In this document: positions 40,259 to 62,547 of the stretch, one piece after another
Layout: each line of letters starts with the position of its first letter
Position numbering within the stretch: the stretch's first letter is position 1
Source of the DNA: an uncultured Bacteroides sp.
Lineage (GTDB): Bacteria > Bacteroidota > Bacteroidia > Bacteroidales > GCA-2748055
Direction of reading: 5' to 3'
Assembly (NCBI GenBank): GCA_964500835.1
Contig: CAZCQL010000005.1
Location: forward strand, 27,733 to 91,732
DNA: 64,000 nucleotides
The notes under the pieces: model-generated
The model's database searches: none
Told to the model about the DNA's origin: nothing
Seen by the model: the letters and a program-made list of their open reading frames with translations, nothing else
Translations under genes and position numbers: made by a program

Positions 40259-40281
40259 TTCTTTTTTATTTGCCAGTAAAA

Positions 40282-43925: not shown

Positions 43926-43929
43926 ATTT

Positions 43930-44955
43930 CTATTTCCAGTCCTCAATTTTAAGGATGAATCCGGCTTCCCTGCTTCCATGGTTTGCCAGGAAGAGGTATT
44001 CGGGATTCCCATCTTTCCACAAGATATGTGGTCTTTCGGTCCGGGAGAGTTCTTCCCCAAAATAATAGCTATTTGTCTGGTATCCGACCTCCGGTATTCC
44101 CCAGTCGATACCGTTTTCTGAGGTGTATATCAGGCCCGGACGATTTCCTCCGGCTCTGATCTGGTCCTTTTCCAGCGGATGACCCTCCAGGGCATCTTTA
44201 ACGTCCATACGATCTTCAACGATAATATAATAGGAGCCTTTGTAATAGAAGGCATAGGGATCCTCAATATCCAATCCGAGATACTCGTAAGAGATCAGTG
44301 GATTATCGGGATGATCGATCCAGGGTCCGTCAAAATTGTCGGCGGTTGCAAGGGAAATTGTTCTCCGTACAGGTTTATGGTCCGAGATCGATTTGTAATA
44401 GATCCTGTAGCGGCCATCCTCATCCACCAGGAAACTGGGATTGGAGGCGTGCAGGGCATGTGCGTCTCCGGCGATAAAAGAGGGCCTGATAATGGGATTG
44501 TTCGGGCTCTCCTTCCATGGCCCGTACAGGGATTTGGCAGTGGCAAGACCGATACTCTGTTGAAGGCTTGGGGTGGAGTTGCTTTTCCAGAGAAAGACCA
44601 TGACATAGGTATCGCCAACCTTTGATATCTGGGGATTGTGATAGGTAGCCGTATCGGATGTGAATGTGGTATCCACAAAAGTGTAGGGACCTTCAGGAGT
44701 GTCTGCCGTAAAATGTAGGATCCTGCTGTCGGTGGTCCAGCTTCCGTTGTCAGGGATCGCTGACATAAATACATGCAACTGACCCTCTTCATCATAGATG
44801 GGTGCCATGCACCAGTTCCACCAGCCATCTTCGGCTTCCAGGATGTATTTGACCGGCACCAGTGATTTACAAAAGGAGGATTCCTTTATGGTCACATTCT
44901 TTGTGCAGGAGAAGCATAACAGGAGTAAACAAATGGAGAAATATATTCTGTTCAT
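43930..44955 (-). CDS. Uncharacterised beta-propeller-like putative glycoside hydrolase, paralog of the C-terminal half of 30282-31751
   Basis: Start placed at the ATG at 44955 (MNRIYFSICLLLLCFSC, lipobox). Shared blocks are CMAPIYDEEGQLHVFMSAIP, HFTADTPEGPYTFVD, HNPQISKVGDTYVMVF, GLATAKSLYGPWKE and ERPHILWKDGNPEYLFLA. Confidence 0.45.
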   Translation of the reverse strand: MNRIYFSICLLLLCFSCTKNVTIKESSFCKSLVPVKYILEAEDGWWNWCMAPIYDEEGQLHVFMSAIPDNGSWTTDSRILHFTADTPEGPYTFVDTTFTSDTATYHNPQISKVGDTYVMVFLWKSNSTPSLQQSIGLATAKSLYGPWKESPNNPIIRPSFIAGDAHALHASNPSFLVDEDGRYRIYYKSISDHKPVRRTISLATADNFDGPWIDHPDNPLISYEYLGLDIEDPYAFYYKGSYYIIVEDRMDVKDALEGHPLEKDQIRAGGNRPGLIYTSENGIDWGIPEVGYQTNSYYFGEELSRTERPHILWKDGNPEYLFLANHGSREAGFILKIEDWK

Positions 44956-45269
44956 TGTCGAATGATCTTTGATGAGCAATTGAATCACACGCTTATTTAT
45001 TCATACTAAAATTCCCTTTTTATTTGCAGAATGATTCGCTCATATCTCTCATCCACTTGCTCAAATCAGACTTTTAATTGTTTATTCCTGCTTTATGATC
45101 GTTTTACGCTTCACCACCAGGGGATTGTTCCATTGCCTGTCGTTGTAAATCCTCTGTGCAGGCATTACATCGATCTCCAGTCCCCCGTCCGTATTCCTGA
45201 AAAGTGGAGAAGGATCCACATTCTTTTGATATGCGGGTACACCGGGAGTGTTAAACAACTACATGGATA

Positions 45270-47159: not shown

Positions 47160-49034
47160 TTACTGCAGCTTTATATACCAGTTATCTTCGTTTATCAAAC
47201 GCTGCCTGATCTCTTCCTTTAACGGAGATTCGAACTTGGCAGCCACCTTATTTGCAAGATAGGCTGGATCGCCCCTGCGCCTGGCAATACGCATGAGGTC
47301 GTAAAATCGCTCCCCTTCGAAGGCCATTTCCCTGATTCGCTCTTCCATGATCTGGTCTTCAACGTAAAGTTGTTTGGCACTCAGGTTGCCGGCATAATTA
47401 AGATAACCGGTAACCTGGTTGGTTTCAGGATCATGGATATAGATGGGATCATTGGTTGAAACTGCTTCAATTCCATTACCAAGACCTACCCGCCCACGCA
47501 CCCCCATTTGATCTCCATCAAAGGTGTAGGTGCCGTCATTGAGTACTGCAAGACTTGTCGATACCACAGGTTTTACAATCCCGCTTGGGTCCGGGAAGCG
47601 CCACTGGGAATATATTTCAGCATAGTAGAGGTGTATTCCTGCAGCCCTGAATACAGGAAAATTTGCATCCCGGTCAAAACGATTCTTTCCAAGGGTGTAT
47701 TTGTAGACCACAGTATCCACACCTTTCATCATTTCCCTCACTGCGGATTCGTTCTGTACACGCTTGTATTCCAGCATCTGCCTCACTTCGGTGCCAGTCA
47801 TTGCTTCACCATTCTTTAAATAGATGTAAGATTTATTATACCCGCGATAAAAATCTCCGGGGATTCCCTGTTCTTCAGGATCAAGTCTGGTTAAGCTATA
47901 ATTATCATCGTTCTCGATACGGAGATAACCAGACCATTCTGTTTCCCATGCGGTGATCGCTGTTTCTGTGGGTTTCAGCATGTACTGGTTGGGCGTTTCT
48001 TTGTCGAACAGATATTGCAACTGGTTTTGCTGCTCATACGACTTGCTAAACCATAGCGCCAGAATGTGCTCATCAACGTCTATGGTGGTGAAGATATTCT
48101 GCCATTTGTTAAAACTAAATTTGTTATCCAACCCGTAACGGATGTACGGGCCTTCAATTTCATTGTAATCCCCGAAGCGCAAAACCTGATCAAAATTCTG
48201 AATGGCTTTTCCGAAATTTCCTATCTCCAGATACATCTGTCCCAGGAGGCTGTGCATGGCAAAGCGGTTCCAAATGGTGACGTCCCAGGTGGGATCTCTG
48301 TTCACCAGGTTATGCAAAACACCCACCAGTTTAACTTTTTCCTGCAACTGGGTAGTAAACGTGTCCACAATGGCAGGGAGGTCAAGGTACATGCGTTCCA
48401 GTACAACCGTGTCATTATAGATGGTATCATTGTTGTATCCATCCGGTCCGTATATGATGGTTACTGGATTGATCACAGTCCTGTTTTGAGATACGTATTC
48501 ACTGATTTCCTCAGCCGTAGTAAGCTCAGGCCAGACATAGGGGACTTCCCTATAGATCCTGGCTGCATTGAAATAGGCCCAGGCCCTCATGCAAAGCACC
48601 TCCCCGTAGAGCCGGTCAAAAATGGTCCCTGTTGTATCCTTTAATACCTCCGGGTGATCCTGTTCCAGCCTTGTGGATAGCCGGTTGCATGCGCCTATCA
48701 GACGGTAAAAGGCCAGGGGAGAGGCATATTTATTGGCAGCTGTGATCTGGTTCCGATTTACTTCGACCAGGTCCCTGTCTGCATTTTCTGTTACAGTTAG
48801 CAGATCACCACGCAGTTCGCCAAGAATCACCAACTGTTCCACCAGGTCCTGTTGAAGGGCATAAAGGCCCAGTTCTGCAGCCCTGTATTCATTCCAATCC
48901 TGAAAATACTCATTCTCATCTACGATCAACCCCTGGTCGGGATCAAAAAATTCTTCACAGGAGTTCAGCATCAGGATGACTGAGATAAAAATGATAATTA
49001 TTGTTTTTCCGCTATATGGGATTCTGATTCTCAT
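47160..49034 (-). CDS. SusD/RagB-family outer-membrane lipoprotein
   Basis: Lipobox LMLNSC. CMRAWAYFNAARIYREVPYVW. The C-terminal block is ERIREMAFEGERFYDLMRIARRRGDP. It lies immediately downstream of a SusC gene. Confidence 0.85.
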   Translation of the reverse strand: MRIRIPYSGKTIIIIFISVILMLNSCEEFFDPDQGLIVDENEYFQDWNEYRAAELGLYALQQDLVEQLVILGELRGDLLTVTENADRDLVEVNRNQITAANKYASPLAFYRLIGACNRLSTRLEQDHPEVLKDTTGTIFDRLYGEVLCMRAWAYFNAARIYREVPYVWPELTTAEEISEYVSQNRTVINPVTIIYGPDGYNNDTIYNDTVVLERMYLDLPAIVDTFTTQLQEKVKLVGVLHNLVNRDPTWDVTIWNRFAMHSLLGQMYLEIGNFGKAIQNFDQVLRFGDYNEIEGPYIRYGLDNKFSFNKWQNIFTTIDVDEHILALWFSKSYEQQNQLQYLFDKETPNQYMLKPTETAITAWETEWSGYLRIENDDNYSLTRLDPEEQGIPGDFYRGYNKSYIYLKNGEAMTGTEVRQMLEYKRVQNESAVREMMKGVDTVVYKYTLGKNRFDRDANFPVFRAAGIHLYYAEIYSQWRFPDPSGIVKPVVSTSLAVLNDGTYTFDGDQMGVRGRVGLGNGIEAVSTNDPIYIHDPETNQVTGYLNYAGNLSAKQLYVEDQIMEERIREMAFEGERFYDLMRIARRRGDPAYLANKVAAKFESPLKEEIRQRLINEDNWYIKLQ

Positions 49035-49045
49035 AGGTTGTACTT

Positions 49046-52000
49046 TTACAGGCCGATCTTAAGTCCAATCATAAATTTCCTTGTAAGGGGGATAAGTCCG
49101 TAGTCAATTCCCTGTTCCATGGTGTTATATGAGACTGCAGATTCAGGATCGTATCCCAGGTAATTCGACAGTGTAATCAGGTTGATCCCCGATATGAAAA
49201 ATTCCGCATCCCTGAAAGCCAGGAATCTGTAAGGAATATGGCAACTCAGGGTAAGATGCTTCAGTCTAACGTAACTTCCATCTTCGATCCACCTGGAGGA
49301 AAAAGTAGCATTTCCGGTGGGATCATCCCAGGAGGCCCGGGGGACATCCGTGTCCTGCCCTTCATGCTGCCAGCGCTGTAATACCCTTGTACTCTGGTTT
49401 GAAAGATCGGACATCTTCTCATTCTGCGAGCGCACATAATTGTATACCTCATTTCCGCTTACGAACTGCAGGCTGCCACTCAGGCTCCAGATCCCATAGC
49501 GGAGTGATGTGTTAATCGCACCGTAGATATCAGGAATGGGGGATCCGATCATGGTCTTATCGTACTCATCTATGATCTGATCCGGTTCACCATCGGGTCC
49601 TGAGAGGTCGAGGAAACGGGCGTCCCCGGCACCAAAAGCTATTCCTCTCTCATTCACCAGATTTGCATCCACGGCCTCCTGTTCAGAACTGTATACTCCG
49701 TCATACAGGTAACCAAAGAAATTCAGAAGCGATTCTCCTTTCCTTGAAATAAAGGATCCTCCATAGAAATCGGTGACTATTTCGTCATTGCTGATTTCAA
49801 GAACCTCATTAGTGAAATGGGACAGGATCAGGCCTAAATCCAAATGGAATTTGCCCGAGCTGATCAACCTTGCATTGGCTGAAATTTCCCATCCTTTATT
49901 GCTCACCGATCCATCGTTATTGGTAAAATATTCAAACCCTGTATAATAAAGCTGGGGCTCATATACCAGGAGGTTGTCCGTTCTGCCGGAGAAATAGTCA
50001 AGGGAGAGCGCCAGCCTGCTGCCATATAGAGCCAGGTCAATCCCCGGGTTCAACTGCGTTCCGCTTTCAGTCCTGATTGACCTGTCGGATATGTTTCCAG
50101 GAACCATGCCGGAGGATTCACGGTAATGCTTTATCTCGTAGTAACGTAAGGCATTCTCATAACCGATGTCATCATTCCCGGCCCTTCCCCAGCTAAACCT
50201 GAGCTTGAGATCCTCCAGCCAGCTAAGATTCCTCAGGTAAGGTTCTCCCGAAATACGCCATGCTCCACCAGCCGAGTAAAAGAGGACGAATGGAACTTCC
50301 CCGAACATAACCAGGTCGTTGTTGCCGGCTTTCTCCAGGGCATTTTTACCTATAACGGTTGAGGTCTCGGATACCACTCCTGCATGGAACAGATAGCGGT
50401 CCCTGAAGGTATAATTCAACCTGGTATATATACCCAGCCTGTTCCACTTATTGGATTCACCACCGAGTTCCCGTAAAAAGGTAGTACCATTTGCAAGGCT
50501 CCGGTATTCATCATTTTCGTTGGAATTCTTTGCGATCCCCCAGTCTTCCTCAAAGACATTGGTGCCTAGCCTGAAACCGGCGATGGCAGTGAGCTGGTGC
50601 TGATTGCCAATTCGCTTACTGTAAGTCAGGTTATTGTCATTATAAAGTGCCAGGAGGTTGTCTTTCAGGGATTTCGACACATTATAGGCTTCTTCATTGT
50701 AATACAGTTCCATACCGTGATTAGGCATGAAAATCAACTCATCGACTGAATTCACATTGATCCCGAGCAGGGAATTCCATTTCAGGTTAGAGGTCAGATC
50801 TCCCTCCAGGCGGATGGATGTCAGGAAACGGTAATTCTTATTTCTGGCGGCAAAATTATTCAGTGTGACTGCCGGATTACTTACACCAAGTTCGTCCACA
50901 TCAGAATAGGTCTGCAATTGCTGCCCTTCATCATCGTAGTCATAGGGTCCCATGAGGGGATTTTTGCGAAGTGCAGAAAGGATGGGACTTGTCTGTTCTA
51001 CCCTCGCCGATTCTTTCAATTCCGAATTGGTCCTTGTGAGGTTGGAGCTGACATAAAGCCGGAGCCATCTAAAGAGGCTGAATGTACCCACAAAACGAAC
51101 GTTGAAACGGTTGTAATTGGTAGTGCTTATGATCCCGTTGTGGTTAAGGTAACCCACTGAGAGGCCATATCGCGCTATCTGGTCCCCACCCATGATCCTC
51201 AGGTAGTAATCATTGAACACGCTGTTGTTGAAAATCTCATCCTGCCAGTTGGTGTTATTACTATACCTGACATAATCCGGATCGGAAGGAAGGATGAACA
51301 GGCCGGGATAATTACCCGGCAGATCTTCCTCCAGCTCTCCGGAATTGAAAAGCATTTCATTTGCCAGGGTTTTGTACTGAAGTGCGTCCAGCTGTGGAAT
51401 TTGCCTGGGTGTGGAAGTCATCCCTGCTCTTACCCGGAAGTCAATGATGGTTCTGACTTCTGTTGGTTTAAGAGTTTCGATCATAACCACCCCATTACTT
51501 CCTCTCAGTCCGTAAGCCGATCCTGCTGCATAATCCTTCAAAACGTTAATACTTGTAATATCAGAGGGATCTAGGGAGGTAAGCGGATTATAGCTATAAC
51601 CGTCCAGCAGGGGATTAAAGATCCCGGGGGATTCGATGGGCATCCCGTCGATCACATACAGCGGCTGGGTATTGGTATTCATAGATTTGATGCCACGGAT
51701 GAAATTCACCGCACCGCTGCCCGGCATTCCCGAGTTGTGTATGGAGTATGAACCGGCAACCTGATCCTGGAAAGCCTCATCAATGGTCTGCCCGCTAACC
51801 CTGTGGAGGATTCCGGTCTGGAGAGGCTGGATGGATGAGATAAACGCTCTTCGGGACTTTTCTTTAAAGGTATTCAACACCAGGTCCTCCCCTGATGGAA
51901 GATCTAATGGTGTCAGCCTGATCATGAGTTTTTCCCGACCGTTCAAAAAAACGCGTTTGGATTTATAGGTATCCACCGGTGAAATGATTACCCACTGGTG

Positions 52001-52219
52001 CGCAGACGGAGACGTCATCACAAACCTTCCACTGCTGTCGCTGATTACAGGATTGGCCAGTACTCCTTCCATGCTTATGGAGATTCCACCGAGACCTTCC
52101 CCATTTTCATTCAGGGTATATCCTTCTATCCGGATGCTGTCCTGTGCCGAACCGGGAATCGCCAATAGCAGAGCTAATCCTAATAATATGCAAATTGAGA
52201 TTTGATGAGTCCTGGACAT
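49046..52219 (-). CDS. SusC/RagA-family TonB-dependent transporter
   Basis: The N-terminal carboxypeptidase-regulatory-like domain is IRIEGYTLNENGEGLGGISI. The plug has PLYVIDGMPIE and INVLKDYAAGSAYGLRGSNGVVMIETLK. The protein is 1057 aa and ends in the beta-barrel terminus KFMIGLKIGL. Confidence 0.9.
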   Translation of the reverse strand: MSRTHQISICILLGLALLLAIPGSAQDSIRIEGYTLNENGEGLGGISISMEGVLANPVISDSSGRFVMTSPSAHQWVIISPVDTYKSKRVFLNGREKLMIRLTPLDLPSGEDLVLNTFKEKSRRAFISSIQPLQTGILHRVSGQTIDEAFQDQVAGSYSIHNSGMPGSGAVNFIRGIKSMNTNTQPLYVIDGMPIESPGIFNPLLDGYSYNPLTSLDPSDITSINVLKDYAAGSAYGLRGSNGVVMIETLKPTEVRTIIDFRVRAGMTSTPRQIPQLDALQYKTLANEMLFNSGELEEDLPGNYPGLFILPSDPDYVRYSNNTNWQDEIFNNSVFNDYYLRIMGGDQIARYGLSVGYLNHNGIISTTNYNRFNVRFVGTFSLFRWLRLYVSSNLTRTNSELKESARVEQTSPILSALRKNPLMGPYDYDDEGQQLQTYSDVDELGVSNPAVTLNNFAARNKNYRFLTSIRLEGDLTSNLKWNSLLGINVNSVDELIFMPNHGMELYYNEEAYNVSKSLKDNLLALYNDNNLTYSKRIGNQHQLTAIAGFRLGTNVFEEDWGIAKNSNENDEYRSLANGTTFLRELGGESNKWNRLGIYTRLNYTFRDRYLFHAGVVSETSTVIGKNALEKAGNNDLVMFGEVPFVLFYSAGGAWRISGEPYLRNLSWLEDLKLRFSWGRAGNDDIGYENALRYYEIKHYRESSGMVPGNISDRSIRTESGTQLNPGIDLALYGSRLALSLDYFSGRTDNLLVYEPQLYYTGFEYFTNNDGSVSNKGWEISANARLISSGKFHLDLGLILSHFTNEVLEISNDEIVTDFYGGSFISRKGESLLNFFGYLYDGVYSSEQEAVDANLVNERGIAFGAGDARFLDLSGPDGEPDQIIDEYDKTMIGSPIPDIYGAINTSLRYGIWSLSGSLQFVSGNEVYNYVRSQNEKMSDLSNQSTRVLQRWQHEGQDTDVPRASWDDPTGNATFSSRWIEDGSYVRLKHLTLSCHIPYRFLAFRDAEFFISGINLITLSNYLGYDPESAVSYNTMEQGIDYGLIPLTRKFMIGLKIGL

Positions 52220-52234
52220 AATCAGAGTTTAATA

Positions 52235-53785
52235 CTAATAGACAGGGATGAGTTTTACATAGTCGATATTAAATCCGTTGGTGCTGCTTGCCCCCGGACC
52301 CTTATATTCAAAGCGAATTCTCACATCTCCATAGGTGGTGAGGTGGTCTACCCAGAAATCCTTCATGTTGAAGCCATCCACGGGAAGAAAACGTTCCCCG
52401 GTTACCGAAATCACCGAGTATTTAAGATCATTGGTATCAAATTCGGAGTATTCAAAACCGAACTTATCCTCGTAGGTCAGCAGGCTGTCATTTACATAGA
52501 TCTCATACAGACCCGAAGGCCTTGAGTTGGCCCGCCATTCCAGCCTGTATTGCATGGGGAAAATGTTCCTGAAGTCGAATTCCATGGAGTACTCACCCTC
52601 ATAATCACGCAAGAAGGAAACATTGACAATCTCTCCTCCACTGGCAGCAAGCGCAGACAGGAGTTTAGGTTCGATCACGGCCCCGGAGACTGTCACATCG
52701 CCCGTCCAGGCATATTTCCCTGCCCCGATCCCTTCGATCAGGGTTTCACCCTCCCTGGTGCTTGTTCCCCGGAAAAGCGAATCGTGTATGGAAAAATCAT
52801 TGTAGAAATAACCTACGCCATTGCTGCAGATAAATCTTGAATCCGGATCGATTTCCCAGGCCTCCACCACAACCGAATCGCCGGTAATACTTTTTATCCA
52901 TCCCACTTCCAGATCGCTGTAGGACAATATCCCTTCAAACATGGCATTTTTCGTTAATCCGGGCAATAATACATCATTTTGCCAGCTGAAGGGGACATCC
53001 TCATGTCCCGTTATGCTTCCACCAAGGCGGGAGGCCATGTCGTCCAGGGCCAGGTCATATTGCTCTTGGGTGAACAGGATCAAAGTGGCATTTTCATCCC
53101 GGAACTCCTTACTAACCGGAAAAAAATCCTCTTCGAACAGATTCACCTTTCCGAATACAGAATCGTAAATGGTATTTCCATCTTCATTAAATCCAAGAGG
53201 TGTGCTCAGGTTACGATCTAGGAAAACAGAATCTTTTGAATCGATGTATTCCTTTAACACATTGCTGTGTTGTGCCGTGAATTCATATAAATTGGGTTTT
53301 GGAACCGCAACTTGCGAGATCTCATAGTACTTACCATCCAGATAGAGTGGGCTGCTTAAAACCATGGGATATCCGTCATAGCTGTATCCCTCCTCATTCT
53401 TTTCAATAAGTACATATTTTCCAGAGCCGGTCAGCATCCTTCTCCAGCTTTTGACGGATTCGTCCACAAAGAGGGTTTGCAGCATATGATACTGTAGCAT
53501 GGTCCGGACATCCAGGATAGTATCTGTAAGCGACTCAAATGCTTCATTGGCAGGGATAAACAGTGTATATACCTGTTCATTCAGGAAGATACTGTCAAGA
53601 CCTTCTGCTTCAACCAGGGATACGAATGTGGAGTAACTGGTTTCCTGGCTGATGGCATCCCATAGTTTCATATTGATCTGATCACCCTGGTTCTCATAAT
53701 GATCCTGCCAGGGGGGATTGCATGACTCGATCGCCGTCATTGAAAACAGCAGGACTATCCCTATTTTTAAATGTACTATTCTCAT
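52235..53785 (-). CDS. Fasciclin (FAS1) domain lipoprotein with a C-terminal beta-sandwich-like domain
   Basis: Lipobox TAIESC. FAS1 block is LWDAISQETSYSTFVSLVEAEGLDSIFLNEQVYTLFIPANEAFESL. The C-terminus ends NGFNIDYVKLIPVY. Confidence 0.7.
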   Translation of the reverse strand: MRIVHLKIGIVLLFSMTAIESCNPPWQDHYENQGDQINMKLWDAISQETSYSTFVSLVEAEGLDSIFLNEQVYTLFIPANEAFESLTDTILDVRTMLQYHMLQTLFVDESVKSWRRMLTGSGKYVLIEKNEEGYSYDGYPMVLSSPLYLDGKYYEISQVAVPKPNLYEFTAQHSNVLKEYIDSKDSVFLDRNLSTPLGFNEDGNTIYDSVFGKVNLFEEDFFPVSKEFRDENATLILFTQEQYDLALDDMASRLGGSITGHEDVPFSWQNDVLLPGLTKNAMFEGILSYSDLEVGWIKSITGDSVVVEAWEIDPDSRFICSNGVGYFYNDFSIHDSLFRGTSTREGETLIEGIGAGKYAWTGDVTVSGAVIEPKLLSALAASGGEIVNVSFLRDYEGEYSMEFDFRNIFPMQYRLEWRANSRPSGLYEIYVNDSLLTYEDKFGFEYSEFDTNDLKYSVISVTGERFLPVDGFNMKDFWVDHLTTYGDVRIRFEYKGPGASSTNGFNIDYVKLIPVY

Positions 53786-53809
53786 AATTAACTCTTTTTC
53801 TCATCAGTC

Positions 53810-55387
53810 CTATTCAGGATTGAATCCCACCCAATCCAGCCTCATGATTCCGGGTATCAGGGTACTTATCTCCAGTAAATGTTCTTTGTAGCTGCTGAAT
53901 TCTAATATTCCCATGCTGTAAGTTGCCCATGGATTGTTGGAATTTCCACCGCTTGTGAGGTCAGTGTTTCCTCCTAACCTCTTGCCGTCAATCCAGACCT
54001 GTATGGTTGCATTATTATTTCCTTTTCCATCGGCCCTTAAATCGAACTGGTACCTGCCGGGCATAATCTTTGGAATGGTGTATGTAAAATCGAAATTCCC
54101 GTTCAATTCAAAGTAATCCCCGCTACTTGCCTTGTTTTCGGCTTGTGTACCTTTCTCATAAATTAACAGTTCGGTTCCGTCCCACCAGAGCTTTTCAAAC
54201 TGCTCCGGTTCAACAAATTCATAGGTGCCATTCGTACTGTAGGCTTCAATGATCAATGGATCCTCACGCAATTGAAAGGTCCTTTGAGATCTTCTCGGTT
54301 CAAATAATTCCATGATCTCATCAATGAAGTGAACCGGTCCGTTCTTTGTATTCAAGTTACTTTCCTGGTAATATAATCCCACGTAGTTAATCCAGGTTGT
54401 ATCCGATCCTGAGATTTCAAGACGGAATGTATCTACACCGGCGTTGAGCTTAATATCTATTCCGGCACTTATGGACACCGGGTAAACGGCATAGCTGTTG
54501 TAGTTGCGGCTTCCCTCAAATGCATCGAGGAAATACCTTCCTTCAAGCATATGGTAGGCGGCAAACTGGTAGAGACCACCATCCGGATCATCCAGCTCAT
54601 AGCCCGGTGTATGCACCCGGTTAATCAGGTCTTCAAAGGTCAGGATACCGATGCGTTCGAAAATTGAATCATGCTCTGCAAATACCGTATAACCGTTTTT
54701 AATAAGCTGCCCTGTGGATGAATGCCTGTATATTCCCATGGTATCATTTAATCCCGAGGCTTTAAAAGCCCTTGAAATAATGGAGTAACCTTCCGTATTT
54801 TCCAGCCATTCATAGCTGTTATAGGAAATCGGCTCAAGCGTTTCACCGATTACCTGGATATATCCGTTGGTGGTTTCAATATCCTGGATGATCACAGGGG
54901 CTCTATTATTGATCATGTATAGTGAAGAATCTTCCGTCACCTGGATTCCGACAGTTAGGTAATCCCCTGTTATCGTGGAGTCTGGCAGGGCTCCATAGGG
55001 GAATTCATTGGATATCAGGCCAATATTCACGATGTGATAGCGGCTGAGGAGCCACAGGAACTCGTAGTCTTGTATCAGGGCCTCAAAACTGTCATATTTG
55101 TCATTCTGCTGGATATACCTGTCGAATGCATCGTCCGTGGGAAGAAACAGGGTATAGTCATCTCCGTGCGGATTATATGCATTCAGAGTGGCATACAGTC
55201 CGGTGGTTTCCAGGATCTGCCAGTACCTGGAGTATTCTTCCTTATTTGACTCAAGGAATGTAGCAATGGACACTACATTCTCATCAAAGAAACCTGTCTC
55301 TTTCTTTTCTACGTCGCAGGCTGTGATGAGGAGCATCCCTGCAGCCAGGAGGCAAAATATAAACCTAATTTGTCTCATAGCCCGCAT
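53810..55387 (-). CDS. Fasciclin (FAS1) domain lipoprotein with a C-terminal beta-sandwich-like domain
   Basis: Lipobox LLITAC. FAS1 block is IATFLESNKEEYSRYWQILETTGLYATLNAYNPHGDDYTLFLPTDDAFDRYI. The start region overlaps the 3' end of the upstream SusD gene by 14-23 nt. Confidence 0.7.
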   Translation of the reverse strand: MRAMRQIRFIFCLLAAGMLLITACDVEKKETGFFDENVVSIATFLESNKEEYSRYWQILETTGLYATLNAYNPHGDDYTLFLPTDDAFDRYIQQNDKYDSFEALIQDYEFLWLLSRYHIVNIGLISNEFPYGALPDSTITGDYLTVGIQVTEDSSLYMINNRAPVIIQDIETTNGYIQVIGETLEPISYNSYEWLENTEGYSIISRAFKASGLNDTMGIYRHSSTGQLIKNGYTVFAEHDSIFERIGILTFEDLINRVHTPGYELDDPDGGLYQFAAYHMLEGRYFLDAFEGSRNYNSYAVYPVSISAGIDIKLNAGVDTFRLEISGSDTTWINYVGLYYQESNLNTKNGPVHFIDEIMELFEPRRSQRTFQLREDPLIIEAYSTNGTYEFVEPEQFEKLWWDGTELLIYEKGTQAENKASSGDYFELNGNFDFTYTIPKIMPGRYQFDLRADGKGNNNATIQVWIDGKRLGGNTDLTSGGNSNNPWATYSMGILEFSSYKEHLLEISTLIPGIMRLDWVGFNPE

Positions 55388-56825
55388 AATATGGGTTTTG
55401 ATTCAATAAATAATTTCTTTCCAATTCATCAGCTTCAATGGGCAAATACCAGCCCCAAGGATTGGTAAGCTTTGTGGAAAGCAGAAGTTTTTGGGTTGAA
55501 GGGACCTTTTCTACGATGATCTCGATCAGCTTGCTTTTTCTCATATAGTCGTTTCTCCTGCCCAATCTGAGAAGGTCAAACCACCTTTTGCCTTCAAAGG
55601 CCAGTTCGCGAGCCCTTTCTTCTAAGATCAGATCTTCGAAAGCTGAAGGGGTATTTGAAACGGAGAGCGGATTCATCAGCCTCTTCGTGCGAAGATCATT
55701 CACAATCGCCAGGGCTTCGTCAAAGCGGCCGACCTGGGATAATGCTTCTGCTTTCATTAGAAGCAGATCTGCCATCCGGTATACAATCCAGTTACCACTC
55801 TTATTGTCTTCTCCAGGACGAAGGGTTTTACCATCAGCTGCAGCTCCCGCATATTTCCAGATTTTTGAATCCGAGATCCTTATGGATCCTTCTCCCCTGA
55901 TGATCTCCTTGGACTGAGATGGATCTAGCAAATCCATCGCACTGGTGCTGGCCAGAAAATTCCTGAAGAAATAGGTCAGGTCATAGGTGGAATTATACTG
56001 CTCCAGTGAAGCATCAAACTGGAATTCGAAAATACCTTCCAGGGAATTGCCAGGGTAGAAAATGCCGAACCACTGTGATCCCGGAACCGGCTCATAACCC
56101 TCATCTTCGACTGCCTCCACATAGGAAATACAGTCTTCATAATCAAAACTCCAGAGAGAAATGTCTGCAAGCAAAGCATTTATCGAGGCCTTCGTGGCCC
56201 TTCCCTTGGTCTCCTCCAGGTTCCCGTATTCCTCCCTCACTCCTTTTCGTGCCACCAGCAGATCATCCGTGATCTGATCCAGGATCTCTTCCGGGGCGGA
56301 GGTGGGCTGGAAGAAATCCACATTGTCCGATTCAGAGGCCTCAAGAATGAGCGGGACCTCCCGGAAAATCCTTACCAGGTAGAAGTATGAAAGACTACGC
56401 AGGAACAACGCTTCAGATTCAAAAACCCTCATCTGGTACTCAGAAAATGTTGCATCTGCTTCCTGAACAATTGGTGCGTATTTCAGCACTGAATTGCAAT
56501 GGGTGATAACCGTATAGAAACGGGACCAGTCGCACAGGCGGTTGTCCGGGAAAATGTTCCCATCCATAATATCGCGGTAGTCACTTGCGGCATTCACATC
56601 ATAGACGATCATGTCTCCCCTTAATTCCCCGGTCAGGAACAGGGTAGCATCCAGCTGTGCAAACTCCTGGTAGGCCCCCATCAGAGAGGCCTCCACATCC
56701 TCCTTGGATTTCCAGTATTCATCCCTTACCAATCCGTCCGGCGGGACCAATTCCAACCAGCCCTCACATGATGATATGAGCAGGGGGAACAGGATGAATG
56801 GTATTATTTTTAATTTTAATTGCAT
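55365..56825 (-). CDS. SusD/RagB-family outer-membrane lipoprotein
   Basis: Start placed at the ATG at 56825 (MQLKLKIIPFILFPLLISSC), 13 nt after the SusC stop. SLSYFYLVRIFREVPL. ERARELAFEGKRWFDLLRLGRRNDY. Confidence 0.85.
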   Translation of the reverse strand: MQLKLKIIPFILFPLLISSCEGWLELVPPDGLVRDEYWKSKEDVEASLMGAYQEFAQLDATLFLTGELRGDMIVYDVNAASDYRDIMDGNIFPDNRLCDWSRFYTVITHCNSVLKYAPIVQEADATFSEYQMRVFESEALFLRSLSYFYLVRIFREVPLILEASESDNVDFFQPTSAPEEILDQITDDLLVARKGVREEYGNLEETKGRATKASINALLADISLWSFDYEDCISYVEAVEDEGYEPVPGSQWFGIFYPGNSLEGIFEFQFDASLEQYNSTYDLTYFFRNFLASTSAMDLLDPSQSKEIIRGEGSIRISDSKIWKYAGAAADGKTLRPGEDNKSGNWIVYRMADLLLMKAEALSQVGRFDEALAIVNDLRTKRLMNPLSVSNTPSAFEDLILEERARELAFEGKRWFDLLRLGRRNDYMRKSKLIEIIVEKVPSTQKLLLSTKLTNPWGWYLPIEADELERNYLLNQNPYYAGYETN

Positions 56826-56838
56826 AGCTTGTAGTTTA

Positions 56839-59800
56839 TCAGAACCCGGCAGAAATGCTAAATACATAGGACTTCGGTACGGGTGTTCGTGCTTTATCCG
56901 TTCCGAACCAGAATGGATCATCTCCGGTCTGGGGAATCTCCGGGTCCTGGCCTGTGTAGTTTGTGAATGTCAGGATTTTACGCATGGATATTGCAAAGTC
57001 CAGAGACTTTAACCCTATCCGTGAACAAGTCTCCCTTGACAGCCTATAGCTGAAGGTCATGTTGTTCAGGCGAAGGAAGTCTCCGTTTTCCACGTAGCGT
57101 TCCGATCCCAGGTTATTGGCCGGGTGATCCATGTATGCACGGGGAATCATGTTCTCTTCATCCTGGCCCTGTATGCGCCACCTGTGGAGAACCGCCTTAC
57201 TCTGGTTGTTCCTGTCAAGCATTCCTTCCGTATCCAAAGCGACTTCATTTACGATCTGGAACCCGGTCCTGTAATGAAATTGTGCCGAAGCACTGAATTG
57301 CCTCCAGACAAAGGTGCTGCCGAATCCACCGATGAAATCGGGATTAGAATCACCCAGGTATACCACGTCCAACAGATCGATGTTCCCGTCATGGTTAACA
57401 TCCTCATAGATAGCATCTCCACCAACAAACTTATATTGCTTGTTAAAGGTGAGCGGGACGGGAACCTTGTTTGCGTCAAGCAAAACGTTGCCGTTGGCAT
57501 CCAGGGCGACCACATCTTCATCCGAGGGCCAAACCCCGAGATAGCGGAAGCCGTAAAAGGCTCCCACGGGCTGACCGATATCCGCCCTCCGTGGGTAGAG
57601 TCCATTCCCGATATTGGTGGCCACTTCATTATTGAAGTTCTCGGGAAACTCCAGGAACACGTTAAAATTGTTGGCAATATTGAAATTCACGTCCCATCTG
57701 AGTCTCTCTTTCCTGATAATACCTAACCGGGTAAAGAATTCCCAACCCTTGTTTTCCAGCATCCCGCCGTTGTAATAATTCAAAACGGTATAACCGGAAG
57801 ATTTCGGAATCTTATAGTTTTTCCAGAGAATATCCTCCGTGGTTTTCTTATAAATTTCGCCGGTCAGTATAATGCGGTCTTTCAGGAAACCGAGGTCCAG
57901 GCCCAGGTTCAACTGGCTCACTGTTTGCCACTTCAGGTTTTCCAGCTGCACTTGCTGCTGGATGATAATGGGATTGTCAATGTACTGGTTAGGATTGGAG
58001 GTATTGAAGATGGCATGTCGGGCATAGGCTGAAGAAGGCTGTTTCCCGGTCTGACCCCAGCTGAACCTCAGCTTTGCATCAGACAGGGCTTCAATACCTG
58101 ACATGAATTCCTCTTCTGAAAACCTCCATCCAAGGCTAACACTGGGGAAAAGTCCCCACCGCTGGTTGGAGCCGAATTTCGAGCTTCCGTCAATACTGGC
58201 AATCATTGAAAAGATGTACCGGTCTTTGAATTTGTAATTCAAGCTGCTCCTTAGTCCTATTCCCCTGTTTTCACTGGATCCTGAGTTGAGCCTCAGTATG
58301 GGGGCATTTGCTGCCGGATCCGTTATGCCGCCTCCGGGGCCCCTGCTCGTGTAAAGGGCCGCATATTCGGTGGACTGCATCTCCACATCCGCGAGTACCA
58401 TACCCGATATAGAATGGGCCGGATTTTTCAGTCGCGGAATGAAACTGAGCTGGGATCTTGAGATAATCTTGTTGGTGGTGTAATTCTGCTCCCAGGCAAA
58501 GTTGTTCAGGTCGTTCAGCCAGTCTGTTCCGATGGCATCGATAGGCAGGTATTGTTTCCTTTTGCGGTTCAGATATTGAAAGGAAATAGTTTGACGGAAC
58601 CTGAGCCAGGCCAAAATGTTGTAATCCAGCACAAAACTATTTTGCACCTGGTTATCGTCCTGGTCGTTGAAACTTAAGTTGGCTACGGCAACCGGGTTGA
58701 AATACTTGTCCCCGTCTCCCTGGTAGCTATAGATTGGGGTAAAGTATTCTCCTGTCAGGTTCCCGTTTTCATCATGTTCCCAGATGGCCATATTGGGAGC
58801 CTTGATGTAGGCCATCTGCCGCACATTGACCCTTTCTTTCTTCCCATCCCCGTCGGTATCAAGCCTGAATTCATAGTTGTCTTCTTTGGCAGTGTTCGAA
58901 TAATTAAAATTCACAGAGAACCTGATCTTGCTACTTATGTTATAGTCCAGGTTAATCCTGGTTGACAGGCGATTAAGGGAGGTATTCTTGGTGGTCCCGT
59001 CATTTTTCTGGTAGTTCACCGAAGCAAAATATCTGGTTTTATCCCCTCCACCTGAAACCTTGAAGTACTGGTCATTGATAAAACCGGTCTGGGATATTGC
59101 CTCAACCCAGTCCGTATTCTTGTTGTAATTGTAGAAATCCACATAATCCCTGTCATAGGCAATCTCATCCGGAATCTCAAAAAGTCCCTGCTGGTTGAGC
59201 AATTGTTCGAGTTGCATCATAATATATTCATCTCCATTCAGCATGGGAATGGGAGGAGGCTGTACATTGATGGTATATTTCCCCTGGTATTCAAATCGCG
59301 TACTTCCCCGCTTACCTCTTTGGGTCTGGATGATCAACACCCCGTCGGCGCCCTTGGAACCCCAGATAGCTGCTGAGGCCGCGTCCTTTAACACGTCTAT
59401 GGATTTGATGTCCTGGGGGGAAATATTGACCAGGTCCCCGATATCTTCCTGATCAGCCGATCCAAAGTCAAATCCTTCATCAATTTTTATGTCCTGGGGG
59501 ATATCATCCACCACGATCAGCGGCGTGGATCCTCCCAGAGAGCCCAGTCCCCTGATCACGATCTGAGAACCCCCTCCGGGATTACCCGATGTCATGATAT
59601 CCAGACCTGAGACTTTTCCCTGCAGGGCTTCCTCTGCCGATACTACCCCCATATATTTCGCTTCCGACATGTCGATCCTTACCTGGGAACCCGTAATATC
59701 CCTCTGTGCAACACCGGTTAAGGAATTGAAATCAGACTCTGCAGTGATAACTACCTCCTCCATCTGTATGGCGGAGGACTTGAGCTCAATATTGATCACT

Positions 59801-60081
59801 GCGCGACCCAGTATGGAGAATTCGGCACTGGTGTATCCAATGTAGCTGATGATAATGATATCTTTCGGATTCTCTACCCGGAGGTTGTAGTTCCCGTTTG
59901 GGTCGGTGATTGTCCCCTTGATGATCCTTCGGTCCTTATCATATTCCGTAACTGTGGCTCCTATGATCCTGCTTCCATCCTCGCTGTCGGTTACCGTACC
60001 GCGGATAATTGTCTGAGCTGATACTCCGGCAGAGACCAGAAGCATAAAAAAGATGAAGATTTGTCTGATTAGGATTTTCAT
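56839..60081 (-). CDS. SusC/RagA-family TonB-dependent transporter
   Basis: MKILIRQIFIFFMLLVSAGVSAQ. IRGTVTDSEDGSRIIGATV is the CarbopepD_reg-like domain. PLIVVDDIPQD and IDVLKDAASAAIWGSKGADGVLIIQTQRG are also present. The protein is 1080 aa. Confidence 0.9.
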   Translation of the reverse strand: MKILIRQIFIFFMLLVSAGVSAQTIIRGTVTDSEDGSRIIGATVTEYDKDRRIIKGTITDPNGNYNLRVENPKDIIIISYIGYTSAEFSILGRAVINIELKSSAIQMEEVVITAESDFNSLTGVAQRDITGSQVRIDMSEAKYMGVVSAEEALQGKVSGLDIMTSGNPGGGSQIVIRGLGSLGGSTPLIVVDDIPQDIKIDEGFDFGSADQEDIGDLVNISPQDIKSIDVLKDAASAAIWGSKGADGVLIIQTQRGKRGSTRFEYQGKYTINVQPPPIPMLNGDEYIMMQLEQLLNQQGLFEIPDEIAYDRDYVDFYNYNKNTDWVEAISQTGFINDQYFKVSGGGDKTRYFASVNYQKNDGTTKNTSLNRLSTRINLDYNISSKIRFSVNFNYSNTAKEDNYEFRLDTDGDGKKERVNVRQMAYIKAPNMAIWEHDENGNLTGEYFTPIYSYQGDGDKYFNPVAVANLSFNDQDDNQVQNSFVLDYNILAWLRFRQTISFQYLNRKRKQYLPIDAIGTDWLNDLNNFAWEQNYTTNKIISRSQLSFIPRLKNPAHSISGMVLADVEMQSTEYAALYTSRGPGGGITDPAANAPILRLNSGSSENRGIGLRSSLNYKFKDRYIFSMIASIDGSSKFGSNQRWGLFPSVSLGWRFSEEEFMSGIEALSDAKLRFSWGQTGKQPSSAYARHAIFNTSNPNQYIDNPIIIQQQVQLENLKWQTVSQLNLGLDLGFLKDRIILTGEIYKKTTEDILWKNYKIPKSSGYTVLNYYNGGMLENKGWEFFTRLGIIRKERLRWDVNFNIANNFNVFLEFPENFNNEVATNIGNGLYPRRADIGQPVGAFYGFRYLGVWPSDEDVVALDANGNVLLDANKVPVPLTFNKQYKFVGGDAIYEDVNHDGNIDLLDVVYLGDSNPDFIGGFGSTFVWRQFSASAQFHYRTGFQIVNEVALDTEGMLDRNNQSKAVLHRWRIQGQDEENMIPRAYMDHPANNLGSERYVENGDFLRLNNMTFSYRLSRETCSRIGLKSLDFAISMRKILTFTNYTGQDPEIPQTGDDPFWFGTDKARTPVPKSYVFSISAGF

Positions 60082-60088
60082 TCTTTCT

Positions 60089-62371
60089 CTATTGTTTGAT
60101 CAGGACAGTGTCAATTTCATGCAAAACTCCGGTTGTAATATAGTCATAGACAGAGGTGGACTCTTCATCCAGATCTGTGGCGATCATCAGATTTGTATGG
60201 TCCTCCTGTTCGAGAATTTCAGTATAGGTACCCCCATGCATGTCCAGGATCCTGATCAGATCATCGCCTGTCTCAATACGTATTGTCGAATACCTGGTGG
60301 TATATGGCGTGGAGGATTCATCTACGCGCAAGGTCTCATAGGTTCCGTCAGGACTGCTCCCGTCGGTCCATATTTTGGTTCCCCTTATGAAATGGTACTT
60401 TACAAATTGCTGCAGTTCTTCCGTGGATAGCGTATCTGTATTATATTTTCCCAGGGCCTCCTCGGTGGGAATCAACACCGTATAAGTTTCTCCTTCAGTT
60501 AAAAAAGGGAAGGTATAATATATCTGATCATAAAGGCCGGCTCTGTCGATCAGGTTGAAGAAACCGGGATAAGACGTGATCCATGAGTACATAGAGGTAG
60601 TAGGATTGGAGAACCAACCTTGTACCTCCATGGTAGTGCCGTTGTCGGTGGGTTCCTCAAGTGGATTGGGATGCACATCAATGGCTGAATCCCCGTTATA
60701 ACCCCATTTGGTCGGCAATGCTCCTGATACCGTATTCTCCTCATTATTTACTACGATATAATTTCCGGCGAGGTTTTCAATGAATTCTTTACTGGCACTT
60801 CCTGTTGGCAGGGTAGTCCCTACCTGGTTCAGGATCATTTTGGTCAGCTGGTTCCTGGGTACGACAGTCATTCTATCACTGGTCCGGTCATATGCCTGGA
60901 AATTGAATCGGTTCGTAGAATAGTCGATCCAATTGATTAAAAGGGATGAATCTTCGGAAAAGGATGCATCGGATTGTGCATAGAAAATGTAATCCCTTCC
61001 CTCTTCCTTCAATGCGGGGAGCACTTTGGCAAACTCCAGTGCATATAACAGAAAGGAATATCCCGGTCGCAGGTAAATGGGACCGGTTATGCTTGAGAAT
61101 GCCCGTGGAACTACTACCCGGTTCAGCCCGAGGAAACTGCAGTTGCTGCCATAGTATTTATAGATAATATCCGCCTCGTTTATGGTAATCTTATCATCGG
61201 CCCCATTAAGGAATCCCGCCTCTAAATTGCTGCGGTAGATGGGTGTTTTTGCCATATGTGAATTCAGGATTATTCGCTTCACCACAAGTGGTACTCCATC
61301 AAAATCTATCCAGTGTGGGTAGCCGCTTTTACTGGTCACCACTTCGTCAAGAAAATTCTGGAATGCCTCATCTGTGGGTACCAGGATCCCATTCTGGTAC
61401 CTAACGGTATAATTGGAAACATTTGTATTCGGTCCGGTGAGTTCTTCATGCAGGTTGAAAGTCAGGTCAGGATAATCCAGGTAGTAGAGGGTGTCAAATA
61501 TGCCCCCGGCCTTGGCTTCCGGTTGTTTATTGGTTACCTCCATGTCAGCTGAAAAAGAGGCAAAGTGATTGAATGCTTCCCTGAAAGTACTGAAACTGAA
61601 TCCTGAGTGCTCCAGGTCTAAGATCTGTTCAGCATTATAAAGCAGATCTGTTACCTTATCAATTTCGTAGATGAAACCATTTTCGGCGAAAATTTCTTCG
61701 CTTACGATTTTGGCATTTCCAAAATACATGTTTCCATTTTCATAGGCCCTGTCATAGTAAAATTCATAGTCATCGTATCGCAGGTCATTCACACTGAAGT
61801 AGTCATCAAAAAAGAGCGGCCCGTATTTCCGCGATCCCGCATAAACTTTTTTATAGTCATCCGATTCGGTCGAATCCACGATCAGGTCATTGATGATGTA
61901 GTACTTTTTGTCTGCATCTTTCTGGATCGTCTGACGTTTGTATCCCCGGGGCTTGTTATTATCCGGATCATCCTGGTCAATCCAGCCATAAATATCAAGG
62001 GATTTCATTTGTTTCAGACTCCAGCCATTCTGCAGCACATGTCTTTCAACCAGGTTTTCCAACTCCTGCGCCGGGATGTTCTCCGGCGAGCCTCCGTATT
62101 CCGGGTGTTTGCCAAACCACTGTTCAAAGGCTTCATTGGTCGGACCAAATACGGTATAACTCCCCGTGACATCCAGGATGGTGTCGTAGCCGGTAAGTTC
62201 AAGGCATTCCTGGAATATTGAAAGATCAGTCCGGGTAGTGATCTGTGTATATATTTTCCCGGCAAGCCAGTCGGGCCGCTGATACTTATCCAGTTCATAT
62301 ATATCCCTGCATCCGTAAAGAAGTGCGCAGGCAAACAGAACAATAGAAAACAGTTTCCTGTCCATACCCAT
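60089..62371 (-). CDS. Multi-FAS1 (fasciclin) domain lipoprotein
   Basis: Lipobox LLYGC. GKIYTQITTRTDLSIFQECLELTGYDTILDVTGSYTVFGPTNEAFEQW plus further FAS1-like blocks (YTVLIPTEEALGKY, GVLHEIDTVLI). The stop is 7 nt before the SusC start. Confidence 0.7.
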   Translation of the reverse strand: MGMDRKLFSIVLFACALLYGCRDIYELDKYQRPDWLAGKIYTQITTRTDLSIFQECLELTGYDTILDVTGSYTVFGPTNEAFEQWFGKHPEYGGSPENIPAQELENLVERHVLQNGWSLKQMKSLDIYGWIDQDDPDNNKPRGYKRQTIQKDADKKYYIINDLIVDSTESDDYKKVYAGSRKYGPLFFDDYFSVNDLRYDDYEFYYDRAYENGNMYFGNAKIVSEEIFAENGFIYEIDKVTDLLYNAEQILDLEHSGFSFSTFREAFNHFASFSADMEVTNKQPEAKAGGIFDTLYYLDYPDLTFNLHEELTGPNTNVSNYTVRYQNGILVPTDEAFQNFLDEVVTSKSGYPHWIDFDGVPLVVKRIILNSHMAKTPIYRSNLEAGFLNGADDKITINEADIIYKYYGSNCSFLGLNRVVVPRAFSSITGPIYLRPGYSFLLYALEFAKVLPALKEEGRDYIFYAQSDASFSEDSSLLINWIDYSTNRFNFQAYDRTSDRMTVVPRNQLTKMILNQVGTTLPTGSASKEFIENLAGNYIVVNNEENTVSGALPTKWGYNGDSAIDVHPNPLEEPTDNGTTMEVQGWFSNPTTSMYSWITSYPGFFNLIDRAGLYDQIYYTFPFLTEGETYTVLIPTEEALGKYNTDTLSTEELQQFVKYHFIRGTKIWTDGSSPDGTYETLRVDESSTPYTTRYSTIRIETGDDLIRILDMHGGTYTEILEQEDHTNLMIATDLDEESTSVYDYITTGVLHEIDTVLIKQ

Positions 62372-62424: not shown

Positions 62425-62432
62425 CAAATATA
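62425..62432 (-). promoter_or_regulatory. Candidate Bacteroidota -7 promoter box (TATATTTG on the minus strand) for the FAS1-SusC-SusD operon
   Basis: Exact TAnnTTTG match 53 nt upstream of the ATG at 62371, and downstream of the terminator hairpin. I found no clean -33 TTTG at consensus spacing. Confidence 0.35.
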
Positions 62433-62482: not shown

Positions 62483-62518
62483 TTTTTAAAAAGGAGCCGG
62501 TCCTATGACCGGCTCCTT
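62483..62518 (-). terminator. Rho-independent terminator after the T9SS/PKD gene
   Basis: Perfect 10-bp (extendable to 12-bp) inverted repeat GGAGCCGGTC-CTAT-GACCGGCTCC at 62493-62516. On the minus strand it is followed by TTTTTAAAAA. It lies 30 nt after the stop at 62548. Confidence 0.8.
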
Positions 62519-62547
62519 CAGAAACTACTACTTACTACAAGAAGAGA

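Follow-up and report, generated by a model that had tools for sequence, protein, structure and literature searches.

A block of seven genes lies on the minus strand at positions 47,160 to 62,371 of a 64,000-nucleotide stretch of DNA (the window) from contig CAZCQL010000005.1 of an uncultured Bacteroides sp. It encodes three lipoproteins with fasciclin (FAS1) domains and two pairs of SusC- and SusD-like proteins in the order FAS1-SusC-SusD-FAS1-FAS1-SusC-SusD, designated F1-C1-D1-F2-F3-C2-D2. The block is a real, conserved and operon-like front end of a polysaccharide utilization locus (PUL). Its genes are as follows.

60089..62371, minus strand: F1, the first gene of the unit, a lipoprotein of 760 amino acids (aa) with four predicted tandem FAS1 domains
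56839..60081, minus strand: C1, a SusC/RagA TonB-dependent transporter of 1080 aa
55365..56825, minus strand: D1, a SusD-family lipoprotein of 486 aa counted from Met33
53810..55387 (or 55378), minus strand: F2, a lipoprotein of 525 or 522 aa with two FAS1 domains and a predicted beta-sandwich tail
52235..53785, minus strand: F3, a lipoprotein of 516 aa, predicted as FAS1-FAS1-beta-sandwich
49046..52219, minus strand: C2, the second SusC/RagA transporter, 1057 aa
47160..49034, minus strand: D2, the second SusD-family lipoprotein, 624 aa

Open reading frames (ORFs) and matches to Pfam and NCBIfam place the seven genes where a first-pass annotation of this DNA had put them, on the same strand and in the same order. 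The lengths of 760, 525 and 516 aa which it gave for three lipobox-bearing fasciclin proteins agree with the Fasciclin matches and the translated lipoboxes, and the junctions that it called very short were recovered at the same values: 7 and 13 nt, an overlap of 23 or 14 nt between D1 and the two possible starts of F2, then 24, 15 and 11 nt. The longest ORF of D1 extends to 56921, and its lipoprotein start is Met33, MQLKLKIIPFILFPLLISSC. The lipoboxes in the translated ORFs are LLYGC in F1, LISSC in D1, LITAC in F2, AIESC in F3 and MLNSC, followed by EEFFD, in D2; the lipobox cysteine is invariant in the family alignments of F1, F2 and F3. As a sequence proxy for surface export, acidic residues were counted at positions +2 to +6 after this cysteine. 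At least one is present in 80% of F1, 96% of F2 and 88% of F3 family members, and at least two in 46-74% of the members of the three families, which is compatible with the surface-export signal of Bacteroidota lipoproteins and is no proof of it.

Both transporters score well above the cut-off of 368 bits for the SusC/RagA family TIGR04056 (C1 701 bits, C2 568 bits). Both contain a Plug domain, and CarbopepD_reg was detected in C1 only. A Pfam scan found an STN domain in neither, in accord with the earlier claim that neither SusC carries such an N-terminal extension; the missing STN fits control by a hybrid two-component system (HTCS). D1 matches SusD_RagB (E 1e-27) and SusD-like_3 (E 4e-15), and D2 matches SusD_RagB (E 3e-9).

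The cassette was followed into other genomes, where loci are cited by their L numbers. With F2 as the query, at least 236 relatives were retrieved, almost all of full length; F1 gave 780 and D2 gave 1,007. A genome scan yielded 62 loci, and the ORFs called in each were assigned by BLAST to the window proteins. Every locus long enough to contain the block (31 of 31) has F1-C1-D1-F2-F3-C2-D2 in that order on one strand, at F2 identities from 68% down to 34%, and the identical order is present on metagenome contigs (L001, L002 and L068-L073). The median junctions across loci are 45, 15, 4, 21, 18 and 14 nt. The first-pass annotation had left the conservation of the gene order to such a survey, and no departure from the order was seen. 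The hosts are mostly of Prolixibacteraceae and Marinilabiliales type and include Prolixibacteraceae, Draconibacterium, Mariniphaga, Maribellus, Salinivirgaceae and other metagenome-assembled genomes (MAGs) labeled 'Bacteroidales/Bacteroidetes'; Roseimarinus sediminis DSM 28824 (L027) is the sole isolate among them. The cassette layout is thus recurrent in many sediment Bacteroidota.

The proteins of the cassette differ in how well they are conserved. Compared with the window proteins, C1 and D1 have a median identity of 52-54% and C2 and D2 one of 46-48%; the three FAS1 proteins reach 37-43%. Surface glycan-binding proteins (SGBPs) typically evolve fastest among the members of a PUL. The FAS1 lipoproteins, having the lowest identity, are the fastest evolving here, in keeping with such a role.

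Tandem susCD pairs are common in PULs, and the block could on that ground be pictured as a chance juxtaposition, or as a recent tandem duplication of one SusCD-FAS1 unit whose copies are functionally undifferentiated. C1 and C2, however, share 25.5% identity (BLASTP), D1 and D2 about 30% over partial stretches only, and F1, F2 and F3 are scarcely alignable with one another by BLAST. The two SusC/SusD pairs thus appear to have diverged anciently, and a recent duplication was therefore rejected. Chance is opposed by the retention of every orthologue in the same order down to 34% identity, and this explanation as a whole is extremely improbable.

The region ahead of F1 carries two transcription signals.

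62483..62519, minus strand: intrinsic terminator, closing the upstream gene for a cargo protein of the type IX secretion system (T9SS)
62425..62432, minus strand: promoter box TATATTTG, a Bacteroidota-type -7 box TAnnTTTG, 54 nt upstream of the F1 ATG

A consensus terminator scan overlooked the upstream hairpin, the T-run of which lies partly inside the stem, and the hairpin was therefore verified by folding. It has a 13-bp GC-rich stem and a U-run, with a folding energy of -25.2 kcal/mol (z = -5.08 against shuffled sequences), so that the strong terminator noted in the first-pass annotation stands. So does the TAnnTTTG box. Of 27 related loci, 17 have it in the 150 nt ahead of F1, in most cases between -35 and -66; by chance it is expected in 6.3% of random 150-nt stretches. 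Upstream of each of the internal genes (C1, D1, F2, F3, C2 and D2) it is present in 0-3 of 29 loci, and a scan found no terminator-like site at the internal junctions of the window cassette. Matches to sigma-70-type promoters were disregarded (34 found, 31.8 expected by chance). The placement of the box ahead of F1 only, together with the short junctions, supports co-transcription of the cassette as what would be a single unit starting at F1.

The Fasciclin family (PF02469, cut-off 22 bits) is matched by F1 with 89.5 bits (E 2.5e-25), F2 with 76.9 bits (E 2e-21) and F3 with 36.8 bits (E 5e-9); NCBIfam has no model covering any of the three. AlphaFold2 models, built from alignments of 48-50 sequences, have predicted local distance difference test (pLDDT) scores of 90.6 for F1 and 88.3 for F2. 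For the F1 model, Foldseek gives an alignment of about 750 columns to periostin and TGFBIp (E ~3e-23), and the last 170 residues of F1 alone match Fasciclin (E 1.3e-9). F1 is thus predicted to be four tandem FAS1 domains and nothing else. This is the domain plan of periostin and TGFBIp, from which F1 differs in being a bacterial lipoprotein without a CROPT/EMI domain and with only about 15% sequence identity. Periostin and TGFBIp belong to the extracellular matrix, whereas the genomic setting of F1 is nutrient uptake.

In F2 the FAS1 domains span approximately residues 35-180 and 185-355, and this part of the model also resembles TGFBIp and periostin (Foldseek, E ~2e-17). F3 is a distant paralogue of F2: the two family profiles align over 455 columns, tail included (hhalign, 97.2%, E 3e-11). 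As the alignment is full-length, F3 has the same plan as F2.

The tail of F2, approximately residues 362-522, is modeled as all-beta between residues 366 and 521, with a pLDDT of about 90. This model and the F2/F3 profile alignment agree with the earlier observation that the two shorter FAS1 proteins end in similar beta-sandwich-like tails. The best match of the F2 tail among solved structures is the xanthan-binding MiXBM (7EHG; Foldseek E 3e-8, TMt 0.74), which is carbohydrate-binding module (CBM) family CBM84 (PMC10881899). Further fold matches are to CBM6 (2Y8K, 5LA0, 8J3X) and CBM35 (2W1W, E 6e-6), and CBM84 and CBM6 score equal to or better than CBM35. At the sequence level, a joint profile of the F2 and F3 tails reaches MiXBM with an E-value of 0.02. 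A phmmer search with the window tail found only 85 matches at E <= 1e-3 among 1.84 billion representative proteins. Most of them are F2-type proteins of 500-560 aa, and the rest are multidomain proteins, among which PL6 chondroitinase-B, GH18, beta-helix and 3-keto-disaccharide-hydrolase domains also occur. At least two of the matches, P0428 and P0437, overlap regions assigned by Pfam to CBM_35 or CBM_35_2 (phmmer, library-wide E 1e-8 to 1e-4). In P0428 the tail matches residues 42-135 and Pfam places CBM_35 at 26-136; the tail profile aligns with this CBM_35 region at 92% probability (hhalign, E 6e-7).

From these models and profiles, the tail appears to be a rare, divergent member of the CBM35/6/84 superfold. 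Like CBM35, CBM6 and CBM84 it is predicted to form a beta-jelly-roll, some 135-160 residues long and closed at the C-terminus by a '...DY(V/I)x(L/F)xP' strand; its fold matches to them range from E 1e-8 to 1e-5, and its sequence points to remote homology with Pfam CBM_35 regions. It differs from them in having no direct Pfam match, in being joined to the FAS1 repeats of a lipoprotein rather than to an enzyme, and in its great rarity (85 relatives in 1.84e9 proteins).

By combining these results, the block can be read as the front end of an HTCS-controlled PUL, an outer-membrane assembly in which F2 and F3 would capture glycan through their CBM-like tails and which would be served by two SusCD pairs. 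The probability of this reading is put at roughly 0.6. A surface-glycan-binding role of the FAS1 lipoproteins is plausible, with the CBM-like tail, and not FAS1, as the most likely site of binding. The first-pass annotation had proposed the FAS1 lipoproteins as SGBPs, and for F2 and F3 the proposal agrees with the CBM-like tail, the position next to susD and the fast evolution; the argument which it drew from FAS1 as a binding fold is weak.

FAS1 relatives that lack the tail bear on this reading. The genome scan found 15 tail-less FAS1 loci (L041-L050, L052-L055, L057, L058 and L064), in which a two-FAS1 protein of about 370 aa is convergent with a multi-FAS1 protein of 590-740 aa (for example L047 9947-13286). 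These loci have no SusCD; their neighbors are a fatty-acid desaturase, a radical-SAM/B12 enzyme and a Na/H exchanger. As the tail is missing from these relatives outside PULs, it marks the PUL-embedded versions. The existence of such FAS1-only paralogue pairs would also suit another explanation, in which the FAS1 lipoproteins are adhesins for algal or particle surfaces or for other cells, merely co-regulated with the transporters and handing no glycan over to SusCD. In its favor, the FAS1 matches in the PDB are all adhesion or matrix proteins or proteins that bind something other than glycans, and a highly transcribed FAS1 protein of a flavobacterial symbiont has been read as an adhesin (PMC10199937). 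Two observations speak against it: the three FAS1 genes are interleaved with two SusCD pairs at near-zero junctions in all 31 loci, and the PUL-embedded F2 and F3 have the CBM-like tail which the relatives outside PULs lack. A role as adhesins is thus judged unlikely.

The reading as a PUL front end also draws on the genes around the cassette, of which the following lie in the window.

62548..64000, minus strand: 3' part (last 484 codons) of a T9SS cargo gene with Por_Secre_tail and PKD domains, its frame open to the window edge
45270..47060, minus strand: GH29 alpha-L-fucosidase (Alpha_L_fucos E 1.6e-74), directly downstream of D2
35850..44988, minus strand: degradative genes for a GH43-like protein, a sulfatase, a GH29, a sulfatase, an esterase and a sulfatase (Pfam)

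The window sequence is also present in JGI metagenome 3300002231 (L067), which supplies the upstream flank. The full T9SS gene is found there (L067 5919-9824) and encodes 1,301 aa with two LTD domains, a cadherin-like domain, PKD and a C-terminal sorting domain, the latter of T9SS type A (TIGR04183, 51.2 bits, cut-off 23; Por_Secre_tail, E 3e-16). Farther upstream on the parent contig are a 1,387-aa HTCS, an SDR and an FAA-hydrolase. The HTCS has the domains Reg_prop, Y_Y_Y, HisKA, HATPase, REC and HTH_AraC and lies about 4 kb upstream of the cassette. In L066, which comes from the same metagenome and is near-identical to L067, the HTCS is split into 463 and 933 aa and the T9SS gene into 358 and 903 aa, and the lengths of F2 and F3 differ slightly; these differences represent strain variants or assembly frameshifts.

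The conserved core of the T9SS protein is its cadherin-like and second-LTD region, and no catalytic domain was recognized in the protein with Pfam, phmmer or a 14-sequence profile searched against the PDB. Of 29 complete loci, at least 13 have a homologue beside the cassette (tblastn with the full 1,301 aa, with only about 3 kb of flank); it lies either downstream or upstream, and in the latter case it is on the same strand or divergent. Homologues are also present in L037, L059 and L068. The T9SS LTD/cadherin protein may be an eighth functional partner of the cassette, or an unrecognized enzyme. The first-pass inventory, while right about the seven genes, had missed both this frequent neighbor and the HTCS.

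On the other side, the gap between D2 and the GH29 gene is 33 nt from the longest GH29 ORF and 99 nt from the signal-peptide Met at 47060, so that the 99-nt gap claimed earlier holds if the enzyme starts at this Met. A scan found no terminator-like site between the two genes, and in L001, L007 and L017 the GH29 gene starts 3-24 nt after D2. The sequence thus leaves GH29 as possibly co-transcribed with the cassette. Counted from its longest ORF (45270-47126, minus strand), this GH29 protein has a beta-rich C-terminal tail of about 150 aa, '...LEAIKISPIH', without Pfam assignment. The sole match of this tail is a weak one to DUF6208 (E 0.007), and it may be another unclassified binding module.

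After the degradative run come genes for an AraC regulator and an MFS transporter and additional sulfatase genes; apart from the three sulfatases of the run, the window encodes three others elsewhere. Two pairs of adjacent susC/susD-like genes, co-localized carbohydrate-active enzymes (CAZymes) and a dedicated HTCS are thus present. With the HTCS upstream, the SusCD pairs, and GH29 and sulfatases downstream, the locus is a bona fide PUL. In the window organism this PUL carries a sulfated-fucose flavor.

The wider window contains several other features. At its left end are an adenylate/guanylate cyclase-HD fusion (796-2190, plus strand) and a caspase-family Peptidase_C14 protein (2893-3975, plus strand). 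They are followed at 6031-14448 (plus strand) by a gene for a type I polyketide synthase of 2,805 aa, which is fully reducing, has a single module (KS-AT-DH-MT-ER-KR-ACP-TE) and is an unusual find on a contig from Bacteroidota, and then by a 257-aa ORF. Between about 24000 and 32000 the G+C content is 0.53-0.55, against 0.44-0.47 elsewhere. This stretch encodes a 1,203-aa GH123-like/CBM_4_9 protein and BNR/sialidase-like and GH43/32-like proteins, and may be a separately acquired PUL segment.

What lies beside the cassette in other genomes bears on its substrate. A scan of 90 flanking proteins from 29 loci against Pfam gave Por_Secre_tail in 11 proteins, Sulfatase in seven, LTD in six, GH29 in five, GH5 and the AraC helix-turn-helix in three each and parts of an HTCS in two. 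The flanks of individual loci are the following.

L071, the closest large genome: GH29, GHL15, two sulfatases, a beta-helix protein and GH29
L072: GH78, DUF6259 and GH2
L073: no CAZymes
L069: GH2, three beta-helix proteins, RicinB, GH29 and PIG-L
L070: a GH27/36-like protein, a sulfatase, and a split Reg_prop/Y_Y_Y kinase with a LuxR regulator
L068: an HTCS, an MFS protein and a T9SS protein
L002: a C39-ABC exporter on one side and a T9SS protein on the other
L027 (R. sediminis): the C-terminus of an HTCS directly upstream

In the closest relatives GHL15 follows the GH29 gene (L071 13726-14910; L001 20081-21295), at a place where the window has its GH43-like gene. The first-pass annotation had set the architecture in a sulfated-fucan context, and this tie does not hold for the cassette at large: relatives are flanked by GH78 and GH2, by GH5, by GH27/36, by beta-helix proteins or by no CAZymes. 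A fucan-specific cassette was rejected on account of this variation, and the sulfated-fucan association is limited to the window's own clade. Since the flanks vary, the cassette can be compared to a portable front end that is paired with different enzyme sets. Several single MAGs contain two diverged whole cassettes (L004/L061, L017/L060, L010/L020 and L013/L014), and the enzymes and regulators beside the two copies differ. Such pairs suggest that a cassette was duplicated or transferred and then re-tooled for other glycans.

The flanks also raise the question whether the cargo is a carbohydrate at all. The cassette might import a non-carbohydrate or mixed substrate, such as a glycoprotein, a peptide or a lipophilic compound of the kind bound by AstaP, and its CAZyme neighbors would then be incidental. 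Some of the fetched flanks have no CAZymes and contain a C39-ABC exporter or DUF6090/rhodanese genes instead, and FAS1 proteins can bind carotenoids (PDB 8c18, 22iy). On the other hand, an HTCS, GH29, sulfatases, GH78, GH2, GH5 and beta-helix enzymes recur beside the cassette, and the tail is related to CBM modules of polysaccharide lyases and glycosidases. Such a cargo is considered very unlikely.

Taking glycan as the cargo, it is possible to picture the process in some detail; surface exposure of the lipoproteins, their glycan binding and substrate, the formation of a complex, a division of labor between the transporters and the roles of F1 and the T9SS protein are what we infer in doing so. 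The cassette would be transcribed as a single unit from the promoter ahead of F1, probably under the control of the HTCS about 4 kb upstream. The FAS1 repeats might serve as a stalk that keeps the CBM-like tail clear of the membrane, a role that is filled in known SGBPs by Ig-like or DUF1735 domains. The tails would catch a complex, probably anionic polysaccharide, which in the window clade might be a sulfated, fucose-rich glycan. The T9SS LTD/cadherin/PKD protein would act on the cell surface, where it might help in capture or be an endo-acting enzyme that has escaped recognition. Fragments could then be imported through the two SusCD pairs, which would differ in specificity, and periplasmic GH29 fucosidases, sulfatases, the esterase and GH43-like enzymes would complete the degradation. 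F1 might be an additional binder, a spacer or an organizer.

Several points weigh against this picture. We know of no FAS1 domain established as a glycan binder; the relatives with solved structures serve in adhesion, bind carotenoids (AstaP) or are subunits of a photosystem or of NDH. The isolated tails of F2 and F3 have no Pfam match up to E = 10, so that their membership among the CBMs is argued from resemblance of fold and from homology of a transitive kind. The acidic lipoprotein-export signal is matched only loosely, most weakly in F3. Co-transcription is read solely from spacing and the placement of motifs. The flanks vary widely and some loci have no enzymes nearby, which makes the substrate unreadable from the cassette. 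F1, finally, has no CBM and lies upstream of SusC, which is atypical for SGBPs; the gene order bears out the first-pass annotation on this atypical position. Being made of four FAS1 domains without a CBM, F1 is the least secure of the three as an SGBP.

The properties of F1 could accordingly be explained in another way. F1, and possibly F2 and F3 with it, might be a scaffold that joins both SusCD pairs in a super-complex, or might face the periplasm, and would not be a primary glycan binder. F1 resembles a long four-FAS1 rod without a binding module and is invariably the first gene of the operon. The acidic surface-export signature is imperfect, and both transporter pairs are kept in every locus, which suggests mutual dependence. 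Ligand capture is favored instead by the CBM-like tails of F2 and F3, and a scaffold or periplasmic role is regarded as improbable.

Capture by F2 and F3 and a structural F1 could also be combined. The seven genes and the T9SS protein would then form an obligate two-transporter 'utilisome', in which the F1 rod would bridge or organize the SusCD pairs and F2 and F3 would display a new, rare CBM family. The whole would be a portable, substrate-flexible front end that is served by fucosidase/sulfatase, rhamnosidase/GH2, GH5 or beta-helix lyase-like sets of enzymes. This proposal is speculative, and in its full form it is rather doubtful. If it were true, FAS1 would be a new class of SGBP scaffold and the tail a new CBM family.

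The PUL front end proposed here has much in common with the Sus-like apparatus of SusC, SusD and SusE/F-type SGBPs, as in the 'utilisome' of gut Bacteroides (PMC7618045). Both have a TonB-dependent SusC with a SusD lid, lipoproteins after SusD with a membrane-proximal repeat stalk and a distal module of carbohydrate-binding type (both predicted in the cassette), and HTCS regulation (probable in the cassette) with degradative enzymes to follow. The cassette differs in that its putative stalk is FAS1, not Ig-like or DUF1735, and that a FAS1 lipoprotein without CBM lies ahead of the first SusC. It also links two distinct SusCD pairs obligatorily, and its seven-gene order is fixed across an order-level clade.

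The xylan clusters of the xusABCD type in Prevotella and Bacteroides are tandem susCD PULs. They share with the cassette two SusC/SusD pairs in one locus and a downstream binding lipoprotein. In the cassette, by contrast, the pairs are separated by two FAS1-CBM lipoproteins and a third FAS1 lipoprotein lies ahead of them, and no fasciclin proteins are known to be reported from such tandem PULs. In Gramella portivictoriae and other Flavobacteriaceae, a hemicellulose-like PUL includes a gene for a fasciclin protein, drawn there with a figure-legend annotation and no analysis (PMC4891872), and that PUL differs in having a single SusCD pair. No functional study of fasciclin proteins in PULs was found in the openly accessible literature, an absence that is no proof since subscription journals were outside the scope of the search. 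Likewise, no paper characterizing the architecture was found in that literature, in agreement with the earlier statement that it had no biochemical characterization. The cassette differs from known PULs in its putative FAS1 SGBP scaffold, its rare CBM35-like tail, the lipoprotein gene before the first SusC and the rigid gene order with a recurrent T9SS partner.

SGBPs and the multiplicity of transporters determine which glycans a Bacteroidota cell captures. To our knowledge, the mechanistic picture of such capture has been drawn almost entirely from systems of gut Bacteroides in which the SGBPs are Ig-like and the SusCD pair is single. The hosts of the cassette are Marinilabiliales of sediments, degraders of algal polysaccharides that are sulfated and rich in deoxy sugars; as a carbon sink, these polysaccharides are important and little understood. 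As at least one cultured strain, Roseimarinus sediminis DSM 28824, has the cassette, the proposals made here are directly testable. The tail could define a new CBM family and could become a useful probe for anionic marine glycans.

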